Notes under the pieces: model-generated | What the model was told of the DNA's origin: nothing | The model's database searches: none | What the model saw: only the letters and a program-made list of their open reading frames with translations | Made by a program: the position numbers and the translations under genes | Shown: positions 23,931-44,401 of the stretch, piece by piece | How positions within the stretch are numbered: position 1 is the stretch's first letter | How the letters are laid out: each line of letters opens with the position of its first letter | From: Alphaproteobacteria bacterium | Lineage (GTDB): Bacteria; Pseudomonadota; Alphaproteobacteria; UBA7985 | NCBI GenBank assembly: GCA_049612785.1 | Contig: JBMZBW010000001.1 | Location: forward strand, 7-64,006 | Length of the DNA stretch: 64,000 nt | Direction of reading: 5' to 3'

Positions 23931-25577
23931 ATGATTATGAAATTTCACTTGTTCGCAGGCTCATGCCTTGCAGGTGTCTCGGCTGCCAGCATTTCAAACG
24001 CAGTGGATATTACCCTCGGCGGCTCTATCGATATGGGTATCGAGTTCGGGGTCAGCAAAAACAGCGGTGCCCTGACCTTTGCAGAGGCTTACAACGGCTT
24101 TACCCTCTCCTTCGACCTGAGCGGTACAACCGATATGGGTATGAAGTACGGTGGTTCCTTCTCGTTGGGCACCACGGCTTCCATTGAGTTCAATCCTTAC
24201 GTTTCCGGTGACAAAAAATACCTCGGTAAGGCATCGGTTGAAGGCGCAAACGACATCGTCGGTATGGCCTACAACGTCTCTGGTGGTGCAGCGATCGCTT
24301 CATCCCACATCGTCGCAGTAAAGATCAACTCAAGCTGGCGCTCGGTTGGTGATGTTCGGACGGATTACGTCATCGAGCTGTCCCCAAGCTTTGTTTCCAG
24401 CAACATCTGTAAGGTTGCTGGCCGCGCTGTGGCTGTCGGCTCAAGCTCAATCGTCGCTGGGGATTACGGTCCGTCGACTGCGCCGCAATATGCAAACGCT
24501 GTTGCCAGCGGATACTTGCCTGTTGGTCAGGTTGTTCAGAACACAACCACGAGCGTCCCTGCCGCTGTTGGCGGCGTTGCTGGTCTAAACGCTGGCCAAG
24601 CTTCCGTTGCTGCCACTGTTGGCTTCGAGACGACAAAGGGTGCTGTCGTAGCGATCACAAAGCCGATTGCCGCTATTGCAGCAAGCGCATTTTCAAACCC
24701 CGGCTCCGCAAACATCACCCGTTTTGCCTACCAGGACAAAGGTAGCGTCGACTTTGATGGCTCTGGCAGTGACGGACCAACCGTTACCAGCGCGCGGATT
24801 TACGCTGGCCCGTTCATGGAAGTCAAAATGGCGTCTTCAACCACGAAACTGGTCGTTGGTGCGGCCTGTGTCGAAGGCTTGAACACTTCTGACGCGGCTT
24901 TCTACCTTGATAACGTTTCCAAGGTCATGACTGCGACTGATGCTTCGATCTTCGTCGAAGGCGGTTTTGGTCGACTGACCCTGCAGTCCGGTGATTACTC
25001 TGGTGGTGTTACATCGATTGCCGGTGCCGGCGATCAGGCTGACATCAAGGCTGACGGTCTGGTCGTGATTGGTGAGAGCGTCGGTCTGTTGGGCGCCAAC
25101 CCTTATGTTGCTGTCGATCTGGCACCAAGCTCCTCTTTGGGTGAGCTGGAGCTTGTCACCGGCGCAAGTGTCAACATGGGCAATCTAATTGCGGCCTTTG
25201 ACTTGAAAGTCGGTAGCGATGATCTGATCGCGCTCGATACCTGGGATCTGGGCATGGACTACTCCATGGGCGGCTTGGCCGTTGGCTTTGCGGCTGATTC
25301 CAACAATGACTGGGGTCTGTCTGCAAGCATGGCCGCTGGCGGTTTTGCAGTCGATGCTGAATTCGGCGCAACCGGTAACGAAGACCACACCAAGTCGGGC
25401 ATCGTGTACTCGATCGTTGGTGCAACATCGCTCAACGGCTTTGGCATCTCGCTGGGTCTGGATCAGGATCTGAAGACGTCCTTCGCGGTGTCTTACGGTC
25501 TGGGCAATCTGAACCTCTACGCTGGCTATGATGTTGGTGATGAAGGTGGTGCCGTTGGCGCGACACTGTCCTTCTAA
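23931..25577 (+). CDS. porin-like outer membrane protein (Rhodobacter-type porin family), unusually large (548 aa), paralog 1
   Basis: Signal peptide. Gly/Ala/Ser/Thr/Val-rich beta-strand composition with no hydrophobic helices. The N-terminal GGSIDMGIEFG and SGTTDMGMKYGGSF motifs resemble Rhodobacter porins. It ends in a C-terminal Phe (ATLSF). The upstream region is AT-rich with a strong GGAG ribosome-binding site. Confidence 0.65.
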   Translation: MIMKFHLFAGSCLAGVSAASISNAVDITLGGSIDMGIEFGVSKNSGALTFAEAYNGFTLSFDLSGTTDMGMKYGGSFSLGTTASIEFNPYVSGDKKYLGKASVEGANDIVGMAYNVSGGAAIASSHIVAVKINSSWRSVGDVRTDYVIELSPSFVSSNICKVAGRAVAVGSSSIVAGDYGPSTAPQYANAVASGYLPVGQVVQNTTTSVPAAVGGVAGLNAGQASVAATVGFETTKGAVVAITKPIAAIAASAFSNPGSANITRFAYQDKGSVDFDGSGSDGPTVTSARIYAGPFMEVKMASSTTKLVVGAACVEGLNTSDAAFYLDNVSKVMTATDASIFVEGGFGRLTLQSGDYSGGVTSIAGAGDQADIKADGLVVIGESVGLLGANPYVAVDLAPSSSLGELELVTGASVNMGNLIAAFDLKVGSDDLIALDTWDLGMDYSMGGLAVGFAADSNNDWGLSASMAAGGFAVDAEFGATGNEDHTKSGIVYSIVGATSLNGFGISLGLDQDLKTSFAVSYGLGNLNLYAGYDVGDEGGAVGATLSF

Positions 25578-25637
25578 AAGGACCTTTTTTTCTCGCAGCT
25601 CCGGTCGCTTTGCGACTGGGGGTGCATCCTAGAGTGA

Positions 25638-25678
25638 AAAGAGCCTGTCAGGGTCCATCCTTGGCAGGCTCTTTTTCG
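25638..25678 (+). terminator. Rho-independent terminator downstream of porin 1
   Basis: agagcctg...caggctct stem followed by ttttt. Confidence 0.5.
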
Positions 25679-25755
25679 TCTGTGCCCCAAGACTGGCGTG
25701 GACAAGAGGAAGGCAGGTCGTCAAACTCCGGCTTCTCGTAAAACCGGAACGTGCA

Positions 25756-28248
25756 ATGACCACCAAAATCAGCTCAGACTACCTCATTGTCGGCACTGGC
25801 GCCGTTGGAATGGCATTCGCGGACGTTTTGCTGAGCGAAACAGACGCGACAATGACCATGGTAGACCGCTATCCGGCTCCCGGAGGGCATTGGAATGTCG
25901 CTTATCCCTTTGTTACGCTGCATCAACCCAGTGCTTTCTATGGCGTGAGCTCAAAAGAGCTGAGCAAAGGGCATGTTGATCAGATCGGCTTGAACAAAGG
26001 ACTGAGTGATCTGGCCACGGGCGCCGAAATCAAAGCCTATTTCGATGAAGTGATGCGCCAAACATTTCTGCCTTCGGGCCGAGTGCAGTATTTTCCCATG
26101 TCAGACTATCAGGGGCAGGGGCGCTTCACCTCTTTGCTCTCCGGCGCTGAGAGCGTGGTTGAATTCGACACGCTCGTCGACGCAACCTTTCTTAAAACCA
26201 GCGTGCCAGCGACGCATGAGCCGAACTTTACTGTCGATCCGGGCGTTTCTTTCATTCCGATCAACGGATTGGTCAACGTTCAGGAGCCTCCAGAGCGCTA
26301 TGTCATCGTAGGAGGCGGAAAAACGGGCATTGATGCCTGTCTCTGGCTCTTGCAGAACGGCGTTGATGCGGATCGTATCACTTGGATCATCCCAAGAGAC
26401 GCGTGGATGCTGGACCGTAACAACACCCAGCCGCGGCGCGAATTTTTCGATCAAACCATTGGCTCACAGGCCGCTTTGATGGAATCGCTGGCCGAAGCAA
26501 CCGACCGGGACGATGCCTTTGACCGGTTGGAGGCCTCTGGCTATTTCCTGCGGTTGGATCCTGCGGTTCGACCGGCCATGTTCCACGGCGCAACCATTTC
26601 TCCGGATGAAGTCACAGCGCTGCGGAGCATCAAAGACGTGGTGCGAATGGGACGTGTTACCCGCATCAGCGCAACGCAAATTGAGTTGACGGAAGGGACA
26701 ATTCCGACGTCATCAAGGGCCTTGCACGTCGATTGCAGCGCTTCCGCCATCACCAATCTCGAAACAAAACCGATCTTCAATAACAAGGTCATCACCCCAC
26801 AGATGGTGCGTTCCTATCAGCCTATTTTCAGCGCAGCACTCATCGCGCACGTTGAGGCGGCTTACGAGGGCGACGCTAAGAAGAATGCCCTGTGTGAGGT
26901 TGTTCCCGTGCCGAATTCGGACAGCGACTTCTTTCGCTTTACTGCCGTTTCAATGATGAACCAGTACAATTGGGGGCAGGATAAGACATTGCGCCGCTGG
27001 ATTGCTGATAATCGGCTGGATGGGTTCAGTAAGCTGATCTCAGACATCCCGAAGGAGGATACGCACCGCCGTGGAACGATCCAGCGCATTCGAGATAACT
27101 CAATGCCTGCAATGATGAAGTTACAGCGCTTCATCAAAGAGCTCGACGACGCGGAAGCCTCCACAAACCCACAGCCGGTGACAGAGCTGCAGATCCATAA
27201 ATCTGACCACACCCAAACACGGCTCATGCCTTTCGCACTCCGTGAGCTGGAGGACGGAGAGGTGAGGATGAAAGTCGAGCAGTTCGGGTTTTCGTCCAAC
27301 AACATAACCTATGCGGTCACGGGGCACAGTCTGCGCTACTGGCAGTTCTTTCCGCCGCAAGGTGACAGTGATGACAGTTGGGGTCTGCTGCCGGTTTGGG
27401 GGTTTGCGACCGTTCAAGAAAGTCGATGTGAAGACCTGGAAGAAGGTAGTCGGCTCTTTGGCTACTGGCCAACGGCGAGCCACGTGACCATTCGGCCAAC
27501 CCACATAAACGCGTCACGTGTGGTTGATGGCTCTCCGCACCGTGCGGATTTGGCGCGAGCCTACAACGCTTATCGGCGCATGGGGGAGCCTAATCCCATG
27601 ATGGATCAACCGATGATGCTGCTCTCACCACTCTATATTACCTCCTGGTGCCTATGGGATTATCTCGTTGATAATCAGTGGTTTAGCGCTAACCGCGTTG
27701 TCATAGTCAGCGCTTCATCCAAGACCAGCATCGGCCTCGCAACGGCCTTGAGCATGGACCCGGAAGCCAAGCCTGCCACGGGGTTAACCAGCAGCCGCAA
27801 CCGTGATTTTGTCGCTGGCCTTGGCCTTTATGATCAAATCGTTTCCTACGATGATCTGACCGAACTCGAAGACACGCCGACTGTGGTTGTCGACATGTCC
27901 GGCAATGCGGAGGTTTTGTCCGGTATTCAGCAATACCTGGGCGATAATCTGAAATACTGCATCAACGTAGGCCTGACGCACTGGGATCAACCTGCCCAAG
28001 GGACCGGTATCCCGAAGGATCGTAAGGAAATGTTCTTTGCCCCTGGGCACATCCAGAAACGCTCGGCAGAGTGGGGGGGCAAGGAACTCGACCAACGCAC
28101 GACAGCATTCATGATGCAGGCGGGGATGAAGGCGCAGGGTTGGATTTCGTACCAGTCTCATCGTGGTTTACAGGGTCTGGAAGCGCTCTACGGCGAGGTC
28201 GTTCAGGGAGCGATTGCCCCTGACAAGGGGCTGGTCATCCAGATGTGA
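25756..28248 (+). CDS. two-domain oxidoreductase: N-terminal FAD/NAD(P)-binding flavin-monooxygenase-like domain fused to a C-terminal medium-chain dehydrogenase/reductase (Zn-ADH-like) domain
   Basis: N-terminus has two Rossmann motifs (IVGTGAVG and VIVGGGKTGID) and a GGHWN segment, in FMO-like order. The C-terminus from about residue 500 has a GroES-like/Rossmann pattern (WGLLPVWGFATV...GSRLFGYWP...VVIVSASSKTSIG) typical of MDR-family enzymes. 830 aa. Confidence 0.55.
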   Translation: MTTKISSDYLIVGTGAVGMAFADVLLSETDATMTMVDRYPAPGGHWNVAYPFVTLHQPSAFYGVSSKELSKGHVDQIGLNKGLSDLATGAEIKAYFDEVMRQTFLPSGRVQYFPMSDYQGQGRFTSLLSGAESVVEFDTLVDATFLKTSVPATHEPNFTVDPGVSFIPINGLVNVQEPPERYVIVGGGKTGIDACLWLLQNGVDADRITWIIPRDAWMLDRNNTQPRREFFDQTIGSQAALMESLAEATDRDDAFDRLEASGYFLRLDPAVRPAMFHGATISPDEVTALRSIKDVVRMGRVTRISATQIELTEGTIPTSSRALHVDCSASAITNLETKPIFNNKVITPQMVRSYQPIFSAALIAHVEAAYEGDAKKNALCEVVPVPNSDSDFFRFTAVSMMNQYNWGQDKTLRRWIADNRLDGFSKLISDIPKEDTHRRGTIQRIRDNSMPAMMKLQRFIKELDDAEASTNPQPVTELQIHKSDHTQTRLMPFALRELEDGEVRMKVEQFGFSSNNITYAVTGHSLRYWQFFPPQGDSDDSWGLLPVWGFATVQESRCEDLEEGSRLFGYWPTASHVTIRPTHINASRVVDGSPHRADLARAYNAYRRMGEPNPMMDQPMMLLSPLYITSWCLWDYLVDNQWFSANRVVIVSASSKTSIGLATALSMDPEAKPATGLTSSRNRDFVAGLGLYDQIVSYDDLTELEDTPTVVVDMSGNAEVLSGIQQYLGDNLKYCINVGLTHWDQPAQGTGIPKDRKEMFFAPGHIQKRSAEWGGKELDQRTTAFMMQAGMKAQGWISYQSHRGLQGLEALYGEVVQGAIAPDKGLVIQM

Positions 28249-28296
28249 GCATCTCAGGGCATTGACGCTCAGCGATTGAGCTTTCATTGACGAGGG

Positions 28297-28641
28297 ATGA
28301 TGTCGATTTTTCGCGATAGGCAGGTAAGGCTTGCCATGCTGCTCCTGTACGGGTTGGCGGCACTGTGCCTGTCGCTTGCCCATGCCGAGCGGATCTTTGC
28401 GGAACCTGTCTTGGATCGACCCAGCTTCTGTCTCAGTGAGGTTGAGGCGAACGAGGCCGGGGGTTTGCCGGATTGCGGTCTTTGCAAAGACTTATCTGGT
28501 GCTGTCCCGACTCATTTTTCGCCTGACGCATTTGCCATCTCTCAGCATGTTGAAGCGCTGCGCTTTGTCTCCATCATCAATGTCGGTCTGACATCGCACT
28601 TACCGCCTGTTGGCTCGCGAGCACCCCCTTTGTTTTCCTGA
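28297..28641 (+). CDS. small exported hypothetical protein (signal peptide, four Cys) immediately upstream of PCu(A)C
   Basis: Signal-like MLLLYGLAALCLSLAHA and a CGLC motif. It is co-oriented with, and 37 bp upstream of, the copper-chaperone genes. This could be a DUF2946-like copper-associated protein, but I cannot confirm that. Confidence 0.3.
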   Translation: MMSIFRDRQVRLAMLLLYGLAALCLSLAHAERIFAEPVLDRPSFCLSEVEANEAGGLPDCGLCKDLSGAVPTHFSPDAFAISQHVEALRFVSIINVGLTSHLPPVGSRAPPLFS

Positions 28642-28678
28642 CTCATCCAACGTAAATTTTGAAATCAGGAAACATCCC

Positions 28679-29185
28679 ATGAAAAAGCTTCTTACTGTTT
28701 TTGCCCTTAGCGCTGCTCTGGGCACATCACTCTTTTCCCACGCAGACGATCAGGCGGACCATCACGGTTTGATGATTACGGAGGCCTGGAGCCGCGTGAC
28801 CACACCCGGGGCCAAAGTTGGCGGCGGCTATCTGAAGATTACCAACCATAGCGACAACGACGATCACTTGGAGTCCGTCGCCTCGGACCATTCTGCCAAG
28901 GCCGAAGTTCATTCCATGGTCATGCAAGACGACGTCATGATCATGCGTCCGCTCGAAGAGGGTTTGGCCATTCCAGCAGGTGAGACAGTGTATCTGGCGC
29001 CGGGCGGTCTGCATCTTATGTTCATGCAACTCCGTCAGCCTCACGTTGTCGGGGAACCATTCGACGCCACGCTGAGCTTTAAGCATGCCGGTGAGAAAAC
29101 CGTGTCGTTCGAAGTCTTGTCGATGCGAGACAGCATGGCGCGCGAAACGCAATCTGATGATCATGCGGAGGAACACAAGCATTGA
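28679..29185 (+). CDS. periplasmic copper chaperone PCu(A)C (DUF461)
   Basis: Signal peptide and His/Met-rich motifs (AEVHSMVMQ...MIMRP...GGLHLMFMQL) characteristic of PCuAC. The start was trimmed to the ATG at 28679, which has an AGGAAAC ribosome-binding site. Confidence 0.8.
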   Translation: MKKLLTVFALSAALGTSLFSHADDQADHHGLMITEAWSRVTTPGAKVGGGYLKITNHSDNDDHLESVASDHSAKAEVHSMVMQDDVMIMRPLEEGLAIPAGETVYLAPGGLHLMFMQLRQPHVVGEPFDATLSFKHAGEKTVSFEVLSMRDSMARETQSDDHAEEHKH

Positions 29186-29781
29186 AAGCGCTTCGTTATA
29201 CCTTGTGGGCAGCAGTCGTTCTGGCCGTTGCCGTTGCTGGCGCTATGGTCTGGACGCTCAACCAGCCGGGTCAAACAAACTCCTCAGGAACCGGAGCGCC
29301 CACGCTGGGCGCGCCGTTTTCTCTGGTTGAGGCGAACGGTGAGCCCATAAGCGAGCGCGCCTTTGCCGGGCGACCGACGGCTCTGTTTTTTGGTTTTACT
29401 CAGTGTCCTGAGGTGTGTCCGGTTTCGCTTTACGAGGTCTCTACCCTCATGGATGAACTGGGGGCAGAGCGCCGCGATCTGCAGGCTTTTTTCATCAGTG
29501 TAGACCCGGAACGCGATACACCTGAGGTTCTTGAGTCTTACATCTCACCTTTTGCTGACAACATTCGCGGAATCACGGGTGACTTGTCCGGCATTCTCGC
29601 GCTGGCTAAAGCGTGGGGGATTCACGTCGAAAAGCTGCCTTTGGCAGATGGCGACTACACGGTTGATCACACGGCATCGGTGATTTTGGTGGATCGGGCG
29701 GGAAAGTTCAGAGGAACAATTGCCTACCGCGAAAATCATGAAACCGCCCTGGAAAAACTCAAGCTGATCATCGATCTCTAG
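29182..29781 (+). CDS. SCO1/SenC family copper chaperone (thioredoxin-like)
   Basis: CPEVCP metal-binding motif, an N-terminal transmembrane anchor, and a 4-bp overlap with the PCuAC gene. Confidence 0.85.
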   Translation: MKALRYTLWAAVVLAVAVAGAMVWTLNQPGQTNSSGTGAPTLGAPFSLVEANGEPISERAFAGRPTALFFGFTQCPEVCPVSLYEVSTLMDELGAERRDLQAFFISVDPERDTPEVLESYISPFADNIRGITGDLSGILALAKAWGIHVEKLPLADGDYTVDHTASVILVDRAGKFRGTIAYRENHETALEKLKLIIDL

Positions 29782-29943
29782 GCTTCTGATTCTCTTTTTT
29801 TAATAGGTTTGTCTGCATTTTAAACGATTTAAGATAGGTTATGCGTGGATTCGCGTATATCAGTCGCATAACAGCATTAAATGTCAGTATCATTAGAATA
29901 AGTCGATAATAACTAAATCACCTTTTGGTTTAGGATTTCGACT

Positions 29944-30321
29944 GTGAATCTCGTCATGAAGTTAGCGGCTTTGGTGCTTGTGCTGTGTCCGGCACTGGCA
30001 AACGCCCAGTTTCAGAAAGTGCGTGCAACCGTGAGCCTTCCGGAGCGGTTCGCCCAGACTAAAGTCTGCGATACTTCAGCTTTTCCCCCTTTTAACCGAC
30101 ATGGGCCGTGGCATTTTGATCTGTGTAACGGTGCTGCAGAAGTCATCGTGAGTTGCCACATCTCGGCTTCGATGCGGGCTAAGGAGGTTTTGCCTTCCCC
30201 CATGCTTCGTCGCGCTCTACTGCGGATGATTGAGGAGTTTGAGGCTGGCGCAGGCGTGGAAGAGGCTGTTCACAGCGCTTTGGAGCTCAGATGCGAATAC
30301 GTGTTGAGTGTACCGGGATAA
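29944..30321 (+). CDS. hypothetical secreted protein (signal peptide, Cys/His-containing)
   Basis: Signal peptide MKLAALVLVLCPALANA. Preceded by an AT-rich intergenic region. No recognisable family. Confidence 0.4.
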   Translation: MNLVMKLAALVLVLCPALANAQFQKVRATVSLPERFAQTKVCDTSAFPPFNRHGPWHFDLCNGAAEVIVSCHISASMRAKEVLPSPMLRRALLRMIEEFEAGAGVEEAVHSALELRCEYVLSVPG

Positions 30322-30386
30322 AAAAAGGGGCCAGCACGATTACCGTGCCGGCCCCTCTCGCATCATCAGATTTCAGAACTTTAGCC

Positions 30387-31700
30387 TCAAGTTGGCGGTA
30401 GTTGCTTGGGTGCTTGTGCGGCACGGGTTGGCAGACCAACACTGCCACTCGCCCCGCAATCGGTGCATACAGCCCGCCAACGCGTGTGTTCCGCTCCACA
30501 ACTCGAGCACACCTGCGGTTCAATGGGCAAACTATGACCATTGAGCGCCGTCGGGGATCGGTCCCTTCCGTCGGTTTCCAGGTTTTGAAGCCGAAGCTTG
30601 AGTGCATTGACCCCCACCGCAGAAGAGGTTTCCGGCAGGTCGCCAACGGCATCTTTGGCGATGGCAATATCGCCGCTTTCAATGGCGGCCTCAGCGCGCA
30701 GGTATTGGCTGAACAAGGCGCTTGGGTTTGCCTGAACCAATTCCGCAATGGCGGTGCGCTTCGCAGCAATGCTTTGAGGGTCAAAGGCTCGAAGGTAGGT
30801 GGTTGCGACACCGGCAGTCGGGCGCAGACGCCATGCCTCCACAGCGTGTTCAATAGCCCGCCGCTTGTTGCCGAGTTCGAGGCTGGCCCGTGCTGCCAGC
30901 GAGCGGGCAGGGATGAAGGTAGGGTCATCGGACAGAGCCCGCGTCGCGTGATCAACGGCTTGTCGCCAAGCGCCCTTTTCTGCTGCTTGGAAGGCCAGAT
31001 CCGTTTCGGTCAGGGCCAGACGGTTTTTGGCGTCAGAAGAAGACAGCAGGCGGCGACTGGCCAGTCGTTTGACAGCGCGTTGCGCGCCTTCGAGCTGGCC
31101 TGTCTGGAGACCCATTTCGTACTCGGTTTCCAAGATCCAAGGGGCGTTGGGTTTGATTTTGCGGGCGCGTTCCAACAACTGCTGAACCTCTTTCCGGTCC
31201 CCGCGCGCGAGGGCCTGCATGGTCTTGCCACGCAGACCGAGAAAGGCGGTTTCATCATTCTTCGTCATTTCGTCGAAGTATTTTGCCGCCGATTCCTCAT
31301 CCCCGTTGAGCTGTGCGGCTTGTGCGGTCAGAAGCATGGTCGCTGGGGTTTCTTCGAGCAATTTGTTGGCTCGGCGGGCTTGCTTGTCGGCCTCGTCAGG
31401 GTCACCGGCGGCCAGCGCAACCAAACCATGGGTCAGAGCCTTGTAGCCTCGGTTTTGCCGAGAGATACGCGCGTTTTTCGCCATTTCTGCCGGCATAGCA
31501 AGTGTGCGACGCACGGCGAAATACACCCAGCCAAAGAGCCAAAAGGCAATCAGCAGCCCAAAGAATACAAAACCAAGGTGAAGTTTCAGGCGGTAGCCAA
31601 AAACCTCGAAGGACGCGTTCCAGTCTGGGTTTTCACTGAACACGTAAGCAATCAATGCCAACACGACAAAGAAAGCAGCAAGCAGGATAAATCGGACCAT
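30387..31700 (-). CDS. HemY-like protein (HemY_N domain, TPR repeats, C-terminal Cys4 zinc ribbon)
   Basis: N-terminal double transmembrane region plus TPR repeats, with a C-terminal CSSCGAEH...CTDCGA. In alphaproteobacteria this gene is typically immediately downstream of Mic60. Confidence 0.8.
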   Translation of the reverse strand: MVRFILLAAFFVVLALIAYVFSENPDWNASFEVFGYRLKLHLGFVFFGLLIAFWLFGWVYFAVRRTLAMPAEMAKNARISRQNRGYKALTHGLVALAAGDPDEADKQARRANKLLEETPATMLLTAQAAQLNGDEESAAKYFDEMTKNDETAFLGLRGKTMQALARGDRKEVQQLLERARKIKPNAPWILETEYEMGLQTGQLEGAQRAVKRLASRRLLSSSDAKNRLALTETDLAFQAAEKGAWRQAVDHATRALSDDPTFIPARSLAARASLELGNKRRAIEHAVEAWRLRPTAGVATTYLRAFDPQSIAAKRTAIAELVQANPSALFSQYLRAEAAIESGDIAIAKDAVGDLPETSSAVGVNALKLRLQNLETDGRDRSPTALNGHSLPIEPQVCSSCGAEHTRWRAVCTDCGASGSVGLPTRAAQAPKQLPPT

Positions 31701-31732
31701 AGTGTCGTCTCCCGTTCAGGCTTCCCAGCCGG

Positions 31733-33259: not shown

Positions 33260-33478
33260 GATTTGGTTCCTTAACGAATTCGCGGCGCGCTGATGCGTGT
33301 TTGCAGTTGGGGCAGAAACATGTGGTGGAGCCTGCCCGTTCACGGTCCGCAACATCGCGTTTTCCAGAGACTTGCCAGATACAAACTACTGCCGACATCG
33401 ACGCAAGCCAAGAATACGTGACGAAATGCTTGGAAGCACCCAGCACACCAATTTATATAAAATTTTTTATAAATAGAC

Positions 33479-35324: not shown

Positions 35325-35400
35325 CGGTGCGGGTGCAGCGAAAGCTTAGCGGTGCGGGTGCAGCGAAGGCTTAGCGGTGCGGGTGCAGCGCAAGCTTAGA
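35301..35400. repeat. tandem direct repeat, 25-bp unit x4 (ggtgcgggtgcagcgaaagcttaac)
   Basis: Four near-identical contiguous 25-mers. The first encodes the last 8 codons and stop of tsaD; the last abuts the stop of the convergent DUF1674 gene. Confidence 0.9.
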
Positions 35401-35608
35401 AATCGATGCAGCGGCCTTTGGATTGCCAGTCGCCAAAGGTTGTAGGCTCTTGTCCTTCGGGTCCGCCATCTTCGGGTTGGCGTGCTGCGGCGAGGCCTTT
35501 AAAGACTTCATGCACCGGACGCATGTCGCCTGCATCCCCGGCCAGAGGCTTTTCCGGCTTGGCGTTTGTCGACTTCTGGACCACTGATGTTTTGAATTCT
35601 GAACTCAT
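35396..35608 (-). CDS. DUF1674 domain protein (SDHAF4-like)
   Basis: 70 aa with C-terminal ...PTTFGDWQSKGRCIDF, matching the DUF1674 signature GDWE.KGR..DF. Confidence 0.65.
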   Translation of the reverse strand: MSSEFKTSVVQKSTNAKPEKPLAGDAGDMRPVHEVFKGLAAARQPEDGGPEGQEPTTFGDWQSKGRCIDF

Positions 35609-35627
35609 ACTGTGAAAGTAGTGTTTC

Positions 35628-36947: not shown

Positions 36948-36992
36948 GTGTCATTAAGGGGCGCACCTGAATGACTTGCTGGAACCTGAACT

Positions 36993-38543
36993 GTGACCAC
37001 ACCCCACAAACGCGCTCTCCTCTCTGTATCTGATAAAGCTGGCCTCGTGCCTTTTGCCCGTGCTCTGGCCCAAATGGGTTTTGAACTGGTCTCGACCGGC
37101 GGAACAGCGTCCCTGCTGGCCAATGAAGGTCTGGCAGTGACCAAGGTATCCGAGGTGACAGGCTTTCCTGAGATCATGGGTGGACGCGTCAAGACGCTGC
37201 ATCCGAAGGTTCACGGGGGCCTGCTGGCTGATCAGGCGAACCCCGAGCACATGGCAACGCTGGATGAGCAGGAGATCGAGCCTTTTGGTCTGCTGGTCGT
37301 GAACCTCTACCCTTTTGCCTCGACGTTGGCGGGTGGAGCAGATTTCGCGACCTGTATTGAGAACATCGACATCGGTGGTCCGGCCATGGTGCGGGCCTGT
37401 GCCAAGAACCATGCCTCGGTGCTGCCGATTGTGGACCCAGGCGACTATGAGCGCGTCATCGCTCTGATCGAAGCTGATGGACTGGATGCCCAGACACGGC
37501 GTGGGTTCGCTGCTAAGGCCTTTGCTCATACGGCGCGTTATGACTCGCAGATTAGTCGTTGGTTGCAGGATGCAGAGGGTCCGGCAGGCTTTCCCGATGA
37601 GCTCAGTTTTGCCGGCGCGAAGTCGCTGGACCTGCGCTATGGCGAGAATCCACACCAAAGCGCGGCGCTGTACCTCACCGCCGAACAACGCCCCGGCATC
37701 GCAACTGGAGAGCTGCTGCAAGGCAAGCCGCTTTCTTACAACAACCTCAATGACGCTGATGCTGCTTTTGAGCTGGTTTCCGAATTCGATGATCCAGCAG
37801 TGGCCATTATCAAGCACGCTAACCCTTGCGGTGTTGCGTTGGGGGACGATCTCTACGGCGCGTACCGTCGTGCCTTGTCCTGTGACGAAACCTCAGCGTT
37901 TGGCGGCATTGTCGCCTGTAATCGCACCTTGGATGGATCCGTCGCTGCGGCCATTACGGAAATCTTTACGGAAGTTGTCATTGCGCCGGATGCCGATGAC
38001 GCTGCGCGGGCTGTTTTCGCGCAGAAGCCGAACCTGCGACTGGTTCTGACCGGCGGCATGCCGGATCCGGCTGCCAAGGGGCTCACGGTGAAATCCATTG
38101 CGGGCGGTCTGCTGGTTCAGTCGCGTGATGATGAACAGGCTACTGTTGAGACCTTCAAGTCAGTCACAGCGAAGCAGCCCGATCAAACCACGCTGAACAA
38201 TCTGGCCTTCGCTCAGCGGGTCGCGAAGCATGTCAAATCCAATACCATCGTGTTGGTCGCAGGTGGTGCAACGTTGGGCATCGGCGCTGGGCAAATGAGC
38301 CGCGTGGATGCAGCTCACCTTGCCATCAAGAAAGCGGGTGAAGCCGGGTTGGATGTTCAGGGAGCCGTTGCTGCCTCAGACGCTTTTTTCCCCTTTGCAG
38401 ACGGGATTCAGGCATTGATTGATGCGGGGGTGAGTGCTGTGGTTCAACCGGGTGGTTCGATGCGTGACGATGACGTCATTGCAGCAGCCGATTCCGCAGG
38501 AATGTCGATGGTCTTCACGGGAACGCGACACTTTCGGCATTGA
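36993..38543 (+). CDS. purH: bifunctional AICAR formyltransferase/IMP cyclohydrolase
   Basis: [15 protein letters not shown]-like IMP cyclohydrolase N-terminus and a C-terminal AICAR transformylase domain. GTG start. 516 aa. Confidence 0.95.
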
Positions 38544-38634
38544 TCGAAACTGCACTGGGTCATGGACTTTGATGCCGTCAACGCCTACCTACAGCCAGTC
38601 AAACATGTAAAAATTCTTTAGGACAACGGACATC

Positions 38635-41319
38635 ATGCTTCAGCGCTTCGCAAAAGCAGTCTTCGGTAACGCAAACGCCAAGTACTTGCGCGGCCTTGAG
38701 TCGAAGGTTGCGGCCATCAACGCCCTTGAGGCTGAGTATGAGGCGCTGAGCGATAGCGCGCTTAAAGACAAGACGGCCGATTTCAAACAGCGGTTAGCAG
38801 ACGGTGCGACGCTGGACGATCTTTTGATCGAGGCTTTCGCGGCTGCTCGTGAGGCGGGTAAGCGGGCTTTGGGCCTTCGCATGTTCGATGTTCAGCTCAT
38901 GGGTGCCATGGTGCTGCACGAGGGACGCGTCGCCGAGATGAAAACCGGTGAAGGTAAAACCCTGACCGCTACGGCCGCTGCTTACCTCAACGCGTTAAGC
39001 GGCAAGGGTGTGCACATCATCACGGTGAACGAATACCTCGTGCAACGCGATTCCGCTGACATGGGCAAGCTGTATCAGGCCCTGGGTCTGACAACCGGAT
39101 ATGTGACGGCGGGTATGGGTCTGGATCGGGGTGTGCTGACGCCGGGCGAGATCGATAACGCCAAGCGCCGGGGTTACGGTGCTGACGTGACCTATTCCAT
39201 CGCTGCGGAGGTCGGGTTTGACCACTTGCGGGACCAGATGAAACCAACACGGGCAGACATGGTGCAGCGCGGTTTCAACTTCGTGATCGTGGACGAGGCT
39301 GACTCCGTCCTCATCGACGAAGCCCGTACGCCTTTGGTGATGTCCGGTCCTGCGGTCGATGTTTCCAACGTGTTCCGGGCGACCGATTTGATCGCACAGG
39401 AATTATCTGAAGAAGCCTATACCATCGATGAAAAGACCCGAAATATCCAGCTGACGGAAGAGGGTGTGCCAGAGCTGGAAATCATCCTGCGCCGTCGTGG
39501 TTTGCTGGGTGAGGACAGCGGGCTTTACCAGCCTGAGAATGTCGGCCTGCTGCACAACATCATGGCGTCCCTTCGAGCCCATCGCCTGTTCCACAAGGAC
39601 CAGCACTATATGGTTCAAGGCGGCGAGATCGTGCTCATTAACGAACTCACCGGCCGTGCTCAACCCGGGCGTCGCATGGGCGACGGTGCGCATCAGGCGC
39701 TGGAGGCGAAAGAGGGGCTCACAATCAAGCCCGAGGCCACGACCATCGCCACCATCACCTATCAGAACTTCTTCCGCCAGTATGCCAAGATTGCTGGCAT
39801 GACCGGAACGGCGCTGACCGAAGCGGCAGAATTCGAAGCTATCTACAACATGTTCGTGACAGCGGTTCCGACCAACCAGCCCATGGTGCGGGAAGATCGG
39901 GACGACGTCATCTATCGCTTTGGTAACCAGAAGGTTCTGGCCATCCTTGACGATGTTAAGGAAGCGCATGCCAAAGGCCAGCCGGTGCTCCTTGGCACGC
40001 CGACGGTTGAAAGCTCTGAAATGTATTCCGCCGCACTCAAGGAAGCCGGGATCGAACACAACGTGCTTTCGGCGCGTCAGCATGAGAGGGAAGCCTTTAC
40101 AATCGCTCAAGCGGGTGCGCCCGGCGCTATCACCATCGCAACGTCCATGGCGGGGCGGGGGACTGACATCCAGCTGGGTGGAAATTACGACTTTGCTTGC
40201 GCAGAGGCGATCAAGGGCGTCCGTGACCCGGCAGAACAAGAAAAAATCGCGGAGACCCTTAAGGCTGAAATCAAAGCCGCGCGGCAGAAGGTGATTGACG
40301 CCGGTGGTCTTTACGTTCTGGGGACCGAACGCGGTGAATCGCGCCGGGTGGACAACCAGTTGCGCGGTCGTTCTGGGCGTCAGGGGGACCCTGGAAAGTC
40401 TCGTTTCTACGTTTCGCTCGAAGACGACCTGATGCGTATTTTCGGCCAAGGTCTTGATACCTGGCTCAAGCGTTTCGGGATCGGGGATGATGAGGCAATC
40501 GAGCATCAGTGGATTACCAATGCCATCGCCAAAGCGCAGGAGCGTCGCGAGGGCTACAACTTCGACATCCGCAAGCAACTGATCCGCTACGATGACGTTC
40601 TGAATGATCAGCGTCAGGCTTACGCGGACCTGCGCGATGAGGTTCTGGATGAAGAGGACCTGACCGAAAAGCTTGAAGACATGCGGGAGAAGGCGACCGA
40701 AGATCTGGTTGCCCGCTACATTCCGCCTTCATCCTATCCGTCTCAGTGGGATCTGGAAGGTCTCGAGCGGGCTGCGGCGGCTTTTGTTCCGGCAGGTTTG
40801 GCAATTCAGGAGTGGGCTGCTGAAGATGGTGTTGATGACGAAGTGATCATTGACCGGACGTTGGAAGCTTTCGACAAGCACATGGCGGCGAAGGCTGCGC
40901 AGATTGGTCCTGAGACCATGCGGGCTGCAGAACGGCAAATCACGTTGCGCGTGTTGGACCAGCTGTGGCGGGAGCACATTCAAAACATGATGCGCTTACG
41001 CGAGGGCGTTTCCCTGCGTGCCTTTGGTCAGCGTGATCCACTTGCGGAGTATCGTCGGGACGGTTTTGAGATGTTCGATGGCATGCTCGAGCGGTACCGC
41101 AACTCCGTTGTTGTGGTGCTGGCAAACCTCGAAGTGCGTCAGCCCGATCCGGCTCAGCAGCAGCCGGCTTCTCAAGCTGCAGCCCGACCTGCGGTTGCCG
41201 CGCCAGTCGCCGCTGCGCCGGGGCAGCTGACAGAAGAACAAATGAAGACCACGAAGCGTAACGATCCATGCCCATGTGGGTCCGGCAAGAAGTTCAAACA
41301 TTGCCACGGATCGGTCTAA
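38635..41319 (+). CDS. secA: preprotein translocase ATPase SecA
   Basis: DEAD-like motor domains and a C-terminal CPCGSGKKFKHCHG zinc finger. 894 aa. Confidence 0.95.
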   Translation: MLQRFAKAVFGNANAKYLRGLESKVAAINALEAEYEALSDSALKDKTADFKQRLADGATLDDLLIEAFAAAREAGKRALGLRMFDVQLMGAMVLHEGRVAEMKTGEGKTLTATAAAYLNALSGKGVHIITVNEYLVQRDSADMGKLYQALGLTTGYVTAGMGLDRGVLTPGEIDNAKRRGYGADVTYSIAAEVGFDHLRDQMKPTRADMVQRGFNFVIVDEADSVLIDEARTPLVMSGPAVDVSNVFRATDLIAQELSEEAYTIDEKTRNIQLTEEGVPELEIILRRRGLLGEDSGLYQPENVGLLHNIMASLRAHRLFHKDQHYMVQGGEIVLINELTGRAQPGRRMGDGAHQALEAKEGLTIKPEATTIATITYQNFFRQYAKIAGMTGTALTEAAEFEAIYNMFVTAVPTNQPMVREDRDDVIYRFGNQKVLAILDDVKEAHAKGQPVLLGTPTVESSEMYSAALKEAGIEHNVLSARQHEREAFTIAQAGAPGAITIATSMAGRGTDIQLGGNYDFACAEAIKGVRDPAEQEKIAETLKAEIKAARQKVIDAGGLYVLGTERGESRRVDNQLRGRSGRQGDPGKSRFYVSLEDDLMRIFGQGLDTWLKRFGIGDDEAIEHQWITNAIAKAQERREGYNFDIRKQLIRYDDVLNDQRQAYADLRDEVLDEEDLTEKLEDMREKATEDLVARYIPPSSYPSQWDLEGLERAAAAFVPAGLAIQEWAAEDGVDDEVIIDRTLEAFDKHMAAKAAQIGPETMRAAERQITLRVLDQLWREHIQNMMRLREGVSLRAFGQRDPLAEYRRDGFEMFDGMLERYRNSVVVVLANLEVRQPDPAQQQPASQAAARPAVAAPVAAAPGQLTEEQMKTTKRNDPCPCGSGKKFKHCHGSV

Positions 41320-41351
41320 GAACGGATCGCGCTTTCTGTCTTCAGAAAAGC

Positions 41352-41391
41352 AAAACGGGGATGAAGCAACTGCTCCATCCCCGTTTTTTTG
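41352..41391. terminator. bidirectional Rho-independent terminator after secA
   Basis: acggggatg...catccccgt stem flanked by an A-run and a T-run. Confidence 0.7.
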
Positions 41392-41422
41392 AAACATTGT
41401 CTGCAGACAAAATTCCTTAAGA

Positions 41423-41608: not shown

Positions 41609-42015
41609 ATTTTCCGATCCCATTTTTAGTTTAACGGTAATGTTCCATAACACCATAAAATCCGCAATCTCAAGATATTTTGGATGTTTGACACTGTGGG
41701 GTTCAAACCTTGGAGTTCTTGCAACAGTCACGTTCCCAGTTTGCGCCCAATCTTGCCAAAACCTAGGCAAAACGGGAATTTAGGGCGGATAAACGAGTGC
41801 TTTCCAAATTTTAGACGACTCTCGTACTGAAATGATATTTTAGTATCATAAGCGTTCGAGTCGCTGCACAAGTGTAACGCAGGCTTGCCATTTTTAAGCC
41901 TAATTCCTTGCGCAACCCGCTCAACCTCAAACCGAGTCCCTCTCAGTGGTCTGGCTGATAGCCCATGGAATCAAGGCCCCCCATGGGGAGGCCTTGGGGT
42001 CTGAAAATGGGTCCA

Positions 42016-42495
42016 TCAGAACAGATTTACGGGCTTACCATTGTGCTCGTTTCCGCTGATTTCACGACTTCCGAGGTATTTGTATTTACACTCTCCGATT
42101 GTGCGTGAATTGCCACCAACAGCTTGGCCTTCGACCTTCACTTTGTAGTCCCAAGTGGTCGGGCAAAAGACACCATAGATCCGATGCTGAGGCTCGCCGG
42201 TTTCGTCATTGTAATCGTCCCGGTACTCGAAGGGTTGAATGTTCGGATCGTGCGAAATGACGATTTCAATAGGGAAACTACCGTGTCCCTTCTGCAAATC
42301 GCACTTTGTCTTCAGAACTTCCAGCGTGGCGCGATCCACGTGCCCAGCGTGGAATCCGGTTGGGTACTTGTCACCTCGGCAAATCACCCGGTCTTTGATG
42401 ATTTTATGGTTTGTGTTCTTCAGGCCGTAGTCCACGCGCCCACAGGCCGATAAAAATATTGCGGCGCAGAATGCTACCAGTAGTCGTATAATCAT
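42016..42495 (-). CDS. hypothetical lipoprotein (about 160 aa) in an AT-rich segment
   Basis: Lipobox FLSAC after a hydrophobic N-terminus, six Cys, and a C-terminus ending in LF. The local GC is low. No family recognised. Confidence 0.45.
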   Translation of the reverse strand: MIIRLLVAFCAAIFLSACGRVDYGLKNTNHKIIKDRVICRGDKYPTGFHAGHVDRATLEVLKTKCDLQKGHGSFPIEIVISHDPNIQPFEYRDDYNDETGEPQHRIYGVFCPTTWDYKVKVEGQAVGGNSRTIGECKYKYLGSREISGNEHNGKPVNLF

Positions 42496-42924
42496 GGGAA
42501 ACCCCAGAAATGAAATGTCTTTCCTCCGCTCTCGCAAGCCAAGTGCCTTTTCAAGTAATTGAGTGAAATTACATACAAATGCAGGATAAGTAGGGAGCGT
42601 TGATGGCCGGATCCTTATCCGCGCCAGAATTGCCAAAGACTCGACAAAATACGGGAACTTAGCTTCTTGGATTCGTGTTTTTAGAGCAACAACCGGGCAC
42701 ATATCCCAAAAATAGCGAATTATCTTCAAGACTTTCTCCCAACGGAGGATCAGAAAGCTCCTGTGGCGTCCCTAATAAAGGAACGCAACGGCTCGATCTT
42801 CTTGTGCGAGAGGATCAGCAACTTCCCTTGTGCGAGGGAAGAAGTCCTCCAGACGGAGGCGAAAACTAAATTGTTGAATCCATCTGAATGTGCGTTCGGG
42901 TGGTTCATATGGAGAAGAGAAAAC

Positions 42925-44401
42925 ATGAAAAAGTTCCTGATTGCGGGCTCTAGCCTCGCAGCAGTGGCTGCTGCTGGCTCTGCCGGCGCAGTAGACGTAA
43001 CCCTCGGCGGCTCCATCGACATGGGCGTTGAGTACGGCGTTGGCAAAGCTGCTGGCGAGTTTGCCATTGGCGATGCTTACAACAAAGTATCCCTGAAGAT
43101 CTCCGCTGCAGGCACCACCGATGGTGGCCTGAAGTACGGTGGTTCCTTCGGTCTGGGCACCGACGCTGAGCTGTCCTTCGCGCCATACGAAAACGGTGGC
43201 AAGAAGTACCTCGTGAAGGCGACCCAAAGCGGCCCAACCGACATTATCGGCAACATCCGTGCTGTTTCCGGCGGCGCGACCGTTGGCGGTGCGTCCGGTG
43301 GTGACATCGTTGCTGTGAAGATCAACTCCGATTGGCAGTCTGTTGGTGCGACCGTAACGGGTTACAGCGTGACTCCATCTGCTCTGGCTGCAGCGACCAT
43401 TTGTAAAGTGGCTGGTCGTGCAACCCCTGCGCCTTCTCTGACTGTAACCCGCATGACGGCTAACGGCGCAGCAAACACAGGTTCCGCTGTAGCCATGACG
43501 GCTGCAGGATACCTTCCTGCTGGTCACGTCACCGGTGGTTCTGCAACCCTGAGCGCTGGCGGTGCTGTGGTAAACGCGACCGGCGTTGACATGGACGGAA
43601 CAGGCACGGGTGCTGCATTGACGGGCGACGTTTACGCTGGTCCATTCATGTCCGTAATGCTGCGCTCCTCATCCACCAAAATGGTTGTTGGTGCGGTTTG
43701 TGTAGAGGGCATCGATGCCTCTGGCACCAACTTCTTCCTGGATAACGCTTCCAAGGTCGTAACCGCGTCCGACGCTTCGATTTTCGTTGAAGGTGGCTTC
43801 GGTAAGATCACCCTGCAGACGGGCGACTACGCTGGTGGCGTTTCTGCAATCGGTGACGCGGGTGATGCTGCTGATCTCGATACAGATGGTCTGGCTGTTA
43901 TCATGAGCGGCGTTGGTCTGCTCGGCGCTAACCCATTTGTTGCAATTGATCTTGCTCCTGCATCTGCTCCGGCCAACCTGGAAATCCTGACCGGTGGCAC
44001 GATCGACATGGGCGGTCTGTCTGCAGCAATCGACGTCGCACTGAGCTCGAGCGACGTTGTCGACATCCTGTCTTGGGATCTGGGTCTGGATTATGCTCTG
44101 GGCGATATGGCTGTTGCCTTTGCTTACGACAGCAACAACGACTGGGGCATGAGCGCTTCCATGGACGTTGCTGGCTTCGGCGTTGATGCGACCGTCTACA
44201 GCAAGTCCACTGAAGACCATGCCAAGAATGGCCTGTTCTACTCTATCGCTGCTTCCACTTCCTTGAACGGCTTCGTTGGGTGTTGATCAGGACATGGAGC
44301 CTACTGTCAGCCTGTCCAAGTCTATGGGCGGTCTCAGCCTGTACGCTGGCTACGACGCTGCTGACGAAGGTGGCAAGGTCGGCGCTACGCTGTCCTTCTA
44401 A
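42925..44401 (+). CDS. porin-like outer membrane protein, paralog 2 of the 23931-25577 gene; apparent frameshift near 44270-44286
   Basis: Signal peptide MKKFLIAGSSLAAVAAAGSAGA with a GGAG ribosome-binding site. Collinear similarity to paralog 1 throughout. The reading frame stops at 44286 (LNGFVGC*). The conserved C-terminal strand ...LYAGYDAADEGGKVGATLSF continues in the +1 frame to 44401. Confidence 0.6.

Follow-up and report, generated by a model that had tools for sequence, protein, structure and literature searches.

Results and Discussion

The two paralogous outer membrane proteins, POR1 and POR2, that lie 18 kb apart in the window examined in this study (a 64,000-nucleotide stretch of an alphaproteobacterial contig) are probably long porins in which one hypervariable insert in loop L2 is reshuffled by recombination, and which would serve as the main diffusion channels of the cell and its main exposed protein surface. 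In sequence searches, the family is restricted to one uncultured marine alphaproteobacterial lineage: 99 matches were found among 1.84 billion representative proteins, with only about 20 full-length clusters, and classical porins match just the first ~80 residues of long porins, the family being isolated in sequence space. Each genome contains 4 to about 10 long-porin copies.

Architecture of the long porins

POR1 is intact, and its parts are as follows.

23937..25577, +: POR1 (copy 1), intact long porin, 546 aa (ORF and translation)
23937..24002, +: signal peptide, residues 1-22, MKFHLFAGSCLAGVSAASISNA / VD (read from the sequence)
24003..24173, +: strands b1-b3, residues 23-79 (homologous to strands 1-3 of classical Porin_4 porins)
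24174..24929, +: giant insertion, loop L2, residues 80-331 (no counterpart in classical porins)
24408..24410, +: Cys158, first family-invariant cysteine (alignments of 55 and 134 sequences)
24411..24791, +: hypervariable cassette, residues 159-285, HV1 - GYLPxG - HV2 (column identity, clustering)
24867..24869, +: Cys311, second family-invariant cysteine (alignments)
24930..25574, +: C-terminal barrel, residues 332-546 (hhalign, model strands)
25023-25043, +: conserved acidic segment GAGDQAD at the L3 position
25568-25583: weaker terminator-like hairpin at POR1

The + strand reading frame of 548 aa at 23931-25577 given in the earlier note was confirmed. It uses an alternative ATG at 23931; the database annotation begins at the ATG at 23937 (546 aa), and database protein P0001, labelled 'MAG: hypothetical protein ACPG40_00125 [Alphaproteobacteria bacterium]', is 100% identical to POR1. 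The signal peptides that had been proposed for both copies are indeed present and of the Sec type, with cleavage after SNA and AGA, and that of POR1 aligns with those of classical Porin_4 porins. Strands b1-b3 of POR1 matched classical Porin_4 porins in hhalign with a probability of 98% (E 2.2e-13, first 76 columns), and the C-terminal barrel did so in global mode with a probability of 94.8% (E 1.2e-8, 211 columns); what remains unmatched is thus precisely the stretch that separates b3 from b4. In the alignments, residues 1-79 of POR1 pair with classical porin columns 1-78, and its last ~230 residues with columns 69-326. Predicted models, which are of moderate confidence (pLDDT 62.9 and 71.5), place POR1 strands at residues 23-39, 46-64 and 70-79 and make the other external loops very short. 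The C-terminal barrel runs from b4-b5 through the acidic segment at the L3 position and the remaining strands to a terminal ...GATLSF with Phe as the last residue, and the IFVEGGFGxLTLQxGD of long porins aligns on the classical vFIsGxFGxLxvGxxD. In Pfam scans, the Porin_4 threshold was passed by P0032, P0103, P0087 and POR2 (E 4e-9; 37.1 bits against a cut-off of 27), while POR1 gave no match, so the Pfam comparison suggested earlier came out positive for one copy only. The scaffold is that of a Porin_4-type porin.

The extra length, which the earlier note had put at about 200 aa beyond classical porins and ascribed to large loops or an extra domain, is one insertion in loop L2, bracketed by a pair of invariant cysteines. 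Each of the 55 sequences checked one by one has exactly two conserved cysteines in its mature part, and both are also invariant across the 134-sequence alignment. Long porins vary in length only through the distance between these cysteines (97-216 aa), the scaffold outside the Cys-Cys segment being constant at 392-400 aa. In POR1, the insertion consists of a conserved base (NVSGG, VKINSxW and YAGPFMEV motifs) and a variable core. The proposed protein would be a Porin_4-type barrel with an inserted L2 domain of roughly 190-310 aa, comprising a conserved beta-rich base closed by the two cysteines, which may form a disulfide, and a hypervariable tip (HV1-GYLPxG-HV2); this domain would face outward, on the extracellular side.

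It could also be argued that these are mainly surface-display or anchor proteins, such as adhesins or an S-layer-like coat, in which the barrel is no more than an anchor for the variable domain, without an appreciable role as a channel. The large exposed domain, the acidic pI (about 4.1) and the many copies agree with this idea, for which major surface proteins of the MOMP or WSP type provide the analogy. However, few parts of the protein are as well conserved as the segment that aligns with the L3 constriction loop, which fits a maintained pore, and a pure anchor role is considered improbable.

A hypervariable cassette on exchangeable modules

Variation among long porins is concentrated in the cassette, where mean pairwise column identity is 0.05-0.36, compared to 0.5-0.95 elsewhere. 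Clustering at 50% identity yields 73 cassette clusters but only 7 for the N module and 9 for the C module. Among protein pairs with identity of at least 95% in each scaffold module, 35 of 91 have cassettes less than 50% identical; conversely, near-identical cassettes occur on scaffolds just 74-83% identical. At the DNA level, a pair of tandem paralogues (L040) has flanks that are 99.7% identical over 700 bp and 98.1% identical over 1077 bp, with a ~330-385-bp cassette lacking detectable similarity. These comparisons indicate that N-terminal, cassette and C-terminal modules reassort among family members. The three modules would be exchanged among paralogues and strains, with conserved motif-coding stretches serving as recombination sites, and the exchange would keep the pore scaffold while changing the exposed surface. 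Both the channel activity and the selective agent are presumed here, with phages or grazers as the putative source of diversifying selection on the L2 domain. Alternatively, there is a limited chance that the proteins are substrate-specific channels in which L2 is a substrate-selecting or substrate-binding module; the paralogues would then widen the nutrient range of an oligotroph, and the cassettes would reflect specialisation, not evasion.

Comparison with known systems

Long porins share with classical Porin_4 porins (PF13609; Rhodobacter capsulatus 3POR, Rhodopseudomonas blastica 1PRN) a signal peptide, the beta-barrel fold and a C-terminal ...F, as well as the b1-b3 motifs VTLGGS..MGV.. 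and TTDGGL.FG.SF, the b4-b5 motif vFI.G.FG.L..G..D and an acidic segment at the L3 position. They differ in length (490-616 aa versus 280-415 aa), in having one L2 insertion of 190-310 aa with two invariant cysteines, and in their marginal or absent scores against the Porin_4 HMM. No sequence similarity to the 18-stranded substrate-specific porins (OprD/Occ, ChiP, LamB, ScrY) was detected, and the homology points to 16-stranded Porin_4 porins, although the Z margin is small and the model only moderately confident.

In Anaplasma, gene conversion diversifies a hypervariable region in the middle of the outer-membrane proteins Msp2/P44 (PF01617; PMC4534519, PMC3338850). Like the long porins, these proteins come from Alphaproteobacteria, sit in the outer membrane and have been reported, or are presumed, to act as porins. 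In both groups the central hypervariable region measures ~100 aa or more and is flanked by conserved 5' and 3' parts, each genome has many copies, and both segmental gene conversion and mosaic alleles occur. Pfam scans of long porins gave no PF01617 match, and there is no sequence homology to Msp2/P44. In addition, each long-porin gene is full-length and has an upstream region of its own, whereas Msp2/P44 have one expression site and truncated silent donors; the long-porin host is free-living and marine, so that selection would come from phages or grazers rather than adaptive immunity; and the variation seen here, by sequence comparison, is among copies and strains. Mosaic variation of surface loops is also known from the hypervariable regions of Wolbachia WSP and from Neisseria PorA/Opa (PMC4534519), which likewise have conserved strands between hypervariable exposed regions that are recombined within and between strains. 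In those proteins, however, variability resides in several short loops and not in one very large Cys-bracketed L2 domain, and the almost identical scaffolds of tandem long-porin paralogues are a further difference.

A probable borrowed tract and a frameshift in the second copy

POR2 differs from POR1 in being interrupted as assembled.

42925..44286, +: POR2 (copy 2), truncated reading frame, 453 aa as assembled (ORF and translation)
43034..43317 (minimum extent), +: proposed gene-conversion tract, residues ~37-131 (comparison with L039/P0103 and L001)
43402..43701, +: Cys160 (43402-43404) to Cys259 (43699-43701), short 99-aa form
44275..44276, +: site of 8-bp deletion, GTCTGTCT (two copies of GTCT) lost (three-way DNA alignment with L001 and L002)
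44276..44401, +: out-of-frame remainder, last ~42 codons, final strands and ...GATLSF (frame translations)
44512..44542, +: strong terminator-like hairpin 3' of POR2, 13 pairs and a T-run

A start at 42925 had been reported for POR2 and stands, but the supposed frame of ~490 aa to 44401 is not continuous: it ends ...SLNGFVGC* with a stop at 44286, and database protein P0121 ('ACPG40_00210') is identical to this product. The terminal Phe and ATLSF, described earlier for both copies, hold for POR1 but are out of frame in POR2, where the remainder lies in the +1 frame at 44273-44401 (stop at 44399-44401); a tblastn query with POR1 residues 505-546 matched 44273-44398. Judged against L001 and L002, near-identical contigs that carry the uninterrupted sequence and a gene intact at 491 aa (P0032), the frameshift results from an 8-bp deletion after base 44275. 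POR2 would be inactivated as assembled, the deletion taking away the last strands and the C-terminal beta-signal, which is required in barrel assembly. The 97-100-aa Cys-Cys form is common to many family members of 490-498 aa.

POR2 would also have recently taken in a ~300-bp tract donated by a third paralogue. Over 284 columns, the tract shows 2 differences from the paralogue L039/P0103 (99.3% identity) and 105 from its own orthologue in L001 (63%), with ~103 informative sites in a row siding with L039; the flanks match L001 at 100% and 95.7%, unlike L039. The breakpoints fall within 43003-43033 and 43318-43329. Searches of JGI metagenome contigs for the junctions of the conversion tract and of the deletion found neither, and both alleles are therefore so far private to the source MAG.

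These absent junctions are also what would be expected if the mosaic tract, the frameshift and much of the reassortment were metagenome assembly artefacts and the real genes ordinary diverged paralogues. Much of the mosaic evidence does come from metagenome assemblies, in which chimeras are possible in multi-copy genes; a contig end cuts the porin gene in 12 of 34 genome loci, and some copies that are split in one assembly are whole in a second. However, the same syntenic locus resumes on either side of a tract of only ~300 bp, and the donor and recipient types share no more than 31 nt and 11 nt of exact sequence at the two breakpoints, shorter than the usual final k-mers of assemblers. The donor module was recovered independently from another sample, where the protein is 100% identical but the DNA only 94.3%, which indicates a real allele under purifying selection. 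Additionally, the tandem pair of L040 is internal to a contig of 499,784 bp, and the invariant cysteines and length statistics are independent of assembly. An artefact is rather unlikely, and the porin variation raised in the earlier note is borne out by evidence of another kind, namely the hypervariable cassette, module reassortment and the conversion tract.

Conserved positions of the two loci

POR1 and POR2 are old paralogues whose chromosomal positions are conserved; they do not form an active pair of repeats that rearranges the intervening 18 kb. Their paralogy was upheld (BLASTP 49% identity over 532 columns, E 8e-154), and all of the collinear motifs listed earlier are present.

25756..41319, no strand: intervening housekeeping block (Pfam scans)
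42016..42729, -: lipoprotein gene upstream of POR2, probable start MIIRLLVAFCAAIFLSAC (translation)
44582..45103, -: lipoprotein gene downstream of POR2, MKKALFAGLCALAILGC... (translation)

The block contains a DUF2855 fusion, PCuAC, SCO1, HemY, HemX-like, HemD, TsaD, RsmB, PurH and SecA, and relatives keep its gene order. POR1 orthologues occupy the MatE / POR1 / DUF2855-PCuAC-SCO1 position in L003-L006 and L017; L007 keeps POR1 / DUF2855-PCuAC-SCO1 with MatE absent and Obg/tRNA-Ser upstream. POR2 orthologues are found at the same position in L001, L002, L010, L012, L015, L022-L024, L028 and L033, where the porin is followed by orf173 and BipA, the upstream SecA and orf237 being visible only in loci that reach that far.

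The earlier note had suggested that the copies act as direct repeats, deleting or inverting the 18-kb segment; a variant has them exchanging sequence with each other. They are homologous and both on the + strand, but their DNA identity is about 66% with a longest exact match of 20 nt, and secA, tsaD and purH are among the genes in between. The comparison with relatives that had been proposed found both loci conserved, 16.5-17.4 kb apart, in species with orthologue identities of only 69-76%, with the bracketing retained in CAJQLX010000009 and CBFIEF010000024. Conservation of the two loci across relatives had been named in the earlier note as speaking against its idea. Repeat-mediated rearrangement is thus not supported, and as POR1 matches the POR2 conversion tract at 78% over 51 bp only, it was not the donor; the direct-repeat explanation is very improbable indeed.

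The stretches upstream of both genes had been described as AT-rich, promoter-like and foreign-looking. They are AT-rich (GC 45% at 23600-23899 for POR1 and 49% at 42001-43000 for POR2), but matches to the sigma-70 consensus were not above chance. The stretch at POR2 is not foreign DNA, since its genes are syntenic in relatives; the upstream lipoprotein gene accompanies POR2 in L001, L002, L010, L015 and L033. The lipoprotein gene downstream of POR2 is syntenic with it in ten loci. Near POR1, the only strain-specific-looking part is a small methyltransferase island adjoining tRNA-Ser; the MatE gene sits between this island and POR1 and is conserved beside POR1 in most relatives.

Porin identity and the insertion in loop L2

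On the best-supported reading, the long porins, the family to which both copies in the window belong, would be diffusion channels derived from Porin_4. The two window genes are as follows.

23931-25577, forward strand: copy 1 open reading frame, intact; in the public annotation the start is 23937, two codons further in (546 aa)
42925-44286, forward strand: copy 2 reading frame, 453 aa, with the C-terminus ...SLNGFVGC followed by a stop
up to 44401, forward strand, +1 frame: the leftover 42 codons of copy 2, including the terminal GATLSF

The Pfam Porin_4 (PF13609) search that had been proposed as a check recovered copy 2 (37.1 bits, gathering cut-off 27) and gave no match for copy 1, while the other family members P0032, P0103 and P0087 scored 30.7, 35.1 and 45.6 bits, respectively. 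Alignment of a 134-member family profile with bona fide Porin_4 porins of 280-415 aa by hhalign gave a probability of 98% (E 2.2e-13), limited to the first 76 columns, which correspond to the signal peptide and strands b1-b3. Taken alone and aligned globally, the C-terminal ~230 residues reached a probability of 94.8% (E 1.2e-8) over 211 columns from b4 to the C-terminus, covering columns 69-326 of the classical-porin template; the motif IFVEGGFGxLTLQxGD aligned on the classical b4-b5 motif vFIsGxFGxLxvGxxD, and a highly conserved acidic stretch (GAGDQADIDADG) aligned at the start of loop L3. The porin-like identity claimed in the earlier note is therefore borne out by Porin_4 profile homology over the barrel parts. 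AlphaFold modelled copy 1 poorly (pLDDT 62.9) and did better, with a deeper alignment, on the intact orthologue P0032, whose model is all-beta (pLDDT 71.5, pTM 0.50); the barrel would have 16 or 18 strands. A Foldseek search with the low-confidence copy 1 model returned generic outer-membrane barrels at TM 0.2-0.3, a result that informs the fold class only. The sequence profile had no meaningful match in the PDB, NCBIfam held no relevant family, no relatives were found among viral contigs, and a BFVD fold search returned phage-borne porin-like entries only and none for the insert.

Because the N- and C-terminal parts align separately to the classical porin, the extra ~250 residues in copy 1 (~190 in copy 2) must all have been inserted at one place, between b3 and b4, which in the known topology of Rhodobacter-type porins (2POR/3POR) is extracellular loop L2. 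The earlier note had inferred large extracellular loops or an extra domain from the additional length, and one large insertion was found. Classical Porin_4 or Rhodobacter-type porins are ~280-415 aa long and have L3 as their longest loop, whereas the long porins measure 490-616 aa and have L2 as theirs, with an insertion of 190-310 aa across the family; a folded domain of that size in L2 of a Porin_4 barrel is without a solved counterpart among the matches found. Two cysteines, and no more, occur in the mature protein in 55/55 sequences of the first alignment, and both are invariant (copy 1: C158 and C311; copy 2: C160 and C259). Their spacing of 97-216 aa explains the whole length variation of the family, and the sequence outside the bracket is constant at 392-400 aa. 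Between the cysteines, copy 1 is hypervariable over residues ~159-285 (column identity 0.05-0.36), a stretch that a conserved GYLPxG island divides into two; those parts of the insertion that lie outside this core are conserved (NVSGG, VKINSxW, YAGPFMEV). The natural reading is that a disulfide would shut the base of a variable surface domain.

Condition of the two window genes

Copy 1 and copy 2 are paralogous, as had been proposed: with the frame of copy 2 repaired, the proteins are 49% identical (E 8e-154), and the DNA is ~66% identical with a longest exact match of 20 nt. However, the earlier note read copy 2 as an ORF of about 490 aa running to 44401, passing silently over a frameshift; the frame stops at 44286. 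Two other contigs with ~99% identity to the window, L001 (from a 105,882-bp scaffold) and L002, have eight additional bases there (GTCTGTCT), directly following the counterpart of 44275, and each encodes an intact 491-aa protein, P0032. The 8-bp deletion in the window thus puts the beta-signal, intact in the orthologue P0032, out of frame, and it takes away the final two or three strands together with the C-terminal Phe signal. The claim that both proteins end in a C-terminal Phe accordingly stands for copy 1, which has both a Sec signal peptide and a C-terminal beta-signal with Phe, and falls for copy 2, which has the signal peptide. If the deletion is real, copy 2 would be incapable of outer-membrane assembly and would be a pseudogene in the source strain; the frameshift allele was seen in this MAG only. 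Both window genes now carry the label 'hypothetical protein' (the database entry for copy 1, P0001, reads 'MAG: hypothetical protein ACPG40_00125 [Alphaproteobacteria bacterium]'), and copy 2 deserves a frameshift flag. A sigma-70 promoter scan 5' of copy 1 and copy 2 found none above shuffled expectation. An inverted repeat (GACTGCGCTTTGCTTCAGTGAAGCGCAGTC, 44402-44445) comes immediately 3' of the original stop codon of copy 2 (44399-44401) and is distinct from a stronger terminator at 44512-44542.

Probable modular recombination across the family and in copy 2

For comparison across the family, each protein was divided into an N-terminal module, a cassette (the hypervariable part between the two cysteines) and a C-terminal module, the N and C modules together forming the scaffold. 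All of the evidence for mosaicism and gene conversion comes from metagenome assemblies. Among 155 full-length proteins, 91 pairs were at least 95% identical in both N and C modules, and the cassette was less than 50% identical in 35 of these 91. Conversely, near-identical cassettes were carried on scaffolds just 74-83% identical, and in some protein pairs the N and C modules were incongruent with each other. Grouping at 50% identity split the cassette into 73 clusters and the N and C modules into 7 and 9, respectively. The same pattern occurs within a single genome at L040, in a pair of tandem paralogues internal to a 499,784-bp contig: at the 5' end, DNA identity is 99.7% across 700 bp (codons 1-164 and the 207 bp before them), at the 3' end it is 98.1% across 1077 bp (from codon ~275 to 238 bp beyond the stop), and the cassettes between, of 330-385 bp, have no detectable similarity.

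Copy 2 differs from its 99%-identical sister contig L001 by one sharply bounded divergent patch.

43034-43317, forward strand: copy 2 conversion tract, with a P0103-type paralogue as source

The tract is 99.3% identical to the gene for P0103 (L039), a third paralogue (2 differences in 284 columns), and 63% identical to L001, while its flanks side with L001 (100% and 95.7%) and not with L039; ~103 consecutive informative sites change allegiance. The breakpoints fall in the coding motifs TLGGSIDMGVE (43003-43033) and KINS (43318-43329). P0103 is a protein of 567 aa whose cassette, C-terminus and gene neighbours all differ from those of copy 2. Over the whole common 5' segment, L039 and the window are 94.3% identical in DNA and 100% identical in protein (135 aa); therefore, the donor module exists independently under purifying selection. 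Copy 1 was ruled out as the donor, with 78% identity over just 51 bp.

That such mosaics are chimeras of metagenome assembly is a legitimate worry, and a scan of JGI metagenome contigs recovered neither of the window junctions (0 matches for the deletion junction and 0 for the 3' conversion junction), so that the deletion and conversion alleles are so far private to this MAG. However, assembly error fits poorly with exact shared sequence of just 31 nt and 11 nt at the window breakpoints, with the return of the window to the same locus on either side of the tract, and with the L040 case, which is internal to a very long contig. On the best-supported reading, the variable face of the cell would be one large Cys-stapled L2 domain on a porin scaffold, and recombination that exchanges modules between paralogues and between strains would renew this domain. 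Porin variation, as raised in the earlier note, holds on the evidence of the recombined cassettes and modules and of the tract, and not on that of the repeat pair from which it had been argued.

Comparison with known systems of surface variation

Anaplasma Msp2/P44, Wolbachia WSP and the neisserial porins combine conserved flanks with a hypervariable centre and vary by gene conversion (PMC4534519, PMC3338850). The long porins resemble Msp2/P44 in having a hypervariable centre between conserved N- and C-terminal regions and, in the metagenome assemblies, in showing segmental gene conversion and mosaic alleles. They differ from Msp2/P44 in having neither a single expression site nor truncated silent donors: each copy observed is a full-length gene, tandem copies have 207 bp of upstream sequence in common, and no partial porin copies occur within the window. 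In Pfam scans at E <= 1 or <= 0.01, the long porins had no match to PF01617 (Msp2/P44). By analogy, the best-supported reading is that the long porins would work like Msp2/P44, WSP and the neisserial porins while belonging to none of those families. A diversity-generating retroelement was rejected as the source of variation, as there is no template repeat (no long near-identical repeat of either cassette in the window) and the cassettes differ in length and lack similarity rather than differing at A positions; no reverse-transcriptase domain was found among the window genes scanned.

In Gram-negative bacteria, the principal exposed proteins are porins, which often serve as phage receptors. A family with a constant pore scaffold and a large Cys-bracketed surface domain swapped among 4-10 paralogues would amount to sequence-defined surface microdiversity in an uncultured, widespread ocean lineage; it could be used as a marker of strain-level phage-host dynamics, and it would account for the breaking of metagenome assemblies at long-porin genes. 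It is possible, if rather doubtful, that an abundant free-living marine alphaproteobacterial lineage possesses combinatorial surface variation akin to that of Msp2/P44, in which gene conversion would move N-terminal, cassette and C-terminal modules between full-length paralogues and thereby continually renew a disulfide-stapled extracellular domain recognized by phages or grazers, with inactivating mutations such as the frameshift of copy 2 forming part of the same arms race.

Distribution of the long-porin family

When 1.84 billion representative proteins were searched exhaustively with a profile, 99 matches only were returned, of which ~20 are full-length 50%-identity clusters and the others are classical porins matched over the N-terminal ~80 residues only. 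Scanning one genome per GTDB species identified 34 loci, which are spread over a handful of MAGs of marine alphaproteobacteria at 4 to ~10 loci each. The porin gene is cut off by a contig end in 12 of these 34 loci (L003-L036), and the long-porin family is a systematic breakpoint in short-read MAG assembly. Tandem arrays of family members were found at L014, L020, L037/L038 and L040. On a 2.38-Mb contig, three tandem members lie beside GntR and MFS genes (L037, 3958-9798; L038, 1713-7550), and individual copies there are broken into two ORFs in one of the assemblies but whole in the second, reflecting either recurrent frameshifts or long-read indel errors. The BipA protein of the window has counterparts of 91-100% identity on hundreds of marine contigs of uncultured origin, and its identity falls to 71-73% in the nearest cultured genera, Oceanibaculum and Nisaea; therefore, the lineage is without a close cultured relative. 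No account of the long-porin family was found in the literature, where one marine structural-variant paper naming a porin covers another matter.

The segment between the two copies

Between the two copies lie genes for a DUF2855 fusion protein, PCuAC, SCO1, HemY, a HemX-like protein, HemD, TsaD, RsmB, PurH and SecA. The setting of copy 1 is kept in relatives (MatE on the reverse strand, the porin on the forward strand, then DUF2855/PCuAC/SCO1), and L007 retains the downstream side while missing the upstream MatE. The setting of copy 2 is likewise kept (SecA forward, lipoprotein reverse, porin forward, then lipoprotein and BipA both reverse). Two other species carry both copies on one contig, 16.5-17.4 kb apart, with 69-71% identity to the window for copy 1 and 70-76% for copy 2 over the assembled part, and more distant genomes (SecA 82%) retain the copy 2 position with a porin that is 42% identical. 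Since both positions are conserved across relatives, the pair is ancient and positionally stable, and by themselves copies 1 and 2 are ordinary conserved paralogues. The earlier note had suggested that they act as direct repeats mediating deletion or inversion of the intervening segment; the conserved arrangement of the pair, the essential housekeeping genes between its members and a DNA identity (~66%) too low for homologous recombination all speak against this. The comparison with related genomes that it had recommended found both porin loci conserved; porin variation arises by another route. The earlier interpretation is partly supported: it was right on the porin assignment and on the large insertion, and the repeat-mediated rearrangement does not hold.

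Several smaller features accompany the porin genes.

21133-21909, reverse strand: SAM-methyltransferase gene directly after tRNA-Ser(cga) (20975-21064), in DNA of 38-42% GC
25756-28248: 830-aa fusion protein immediately after copy 1, with a weak Pyr_redox_2-like N-terminal half and DUF2855
within 41423-42729 and 44582-45103, strand opposite to copy 2: two predicted lipoprotein genes flanking copy 2, with lipoboxes FLSAC and ILGC

The methyltransferase is missing in L003-L007, and in L007 the tRNA-Ser sits immediately 5' of the copy 1 orthologue; the tRNA-Ser/methyltransferase unit (20975-21909) is probably a small strain-specific island at a tRNA. An Rfam scan of the window found tRNA-Ser only. 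The DUF2855 fusion is kept in L003, L005, L007 and L017 and is absent between the porin and PCuAC in L006. At the end of tsaD begins a 25-nt tandem repeat (CGGTGCGGGTGCAGCGAAAGCTTAG, 35300-35399), which has 4.0 copies in the window versus 2.6 in the 99%-identical L001, so its copy number differs between strains. A small secreted Cys-containing protein (MKTLIGSIVALFAFAAVANAC...) is also encoded beside copy 2 (region 41423-42729 / 44582-45103). Pfam gave no match for this protein or for either of the flanking lipoproteins, and both lipoproteins are syntenic with the copy 2 porin in relatives.
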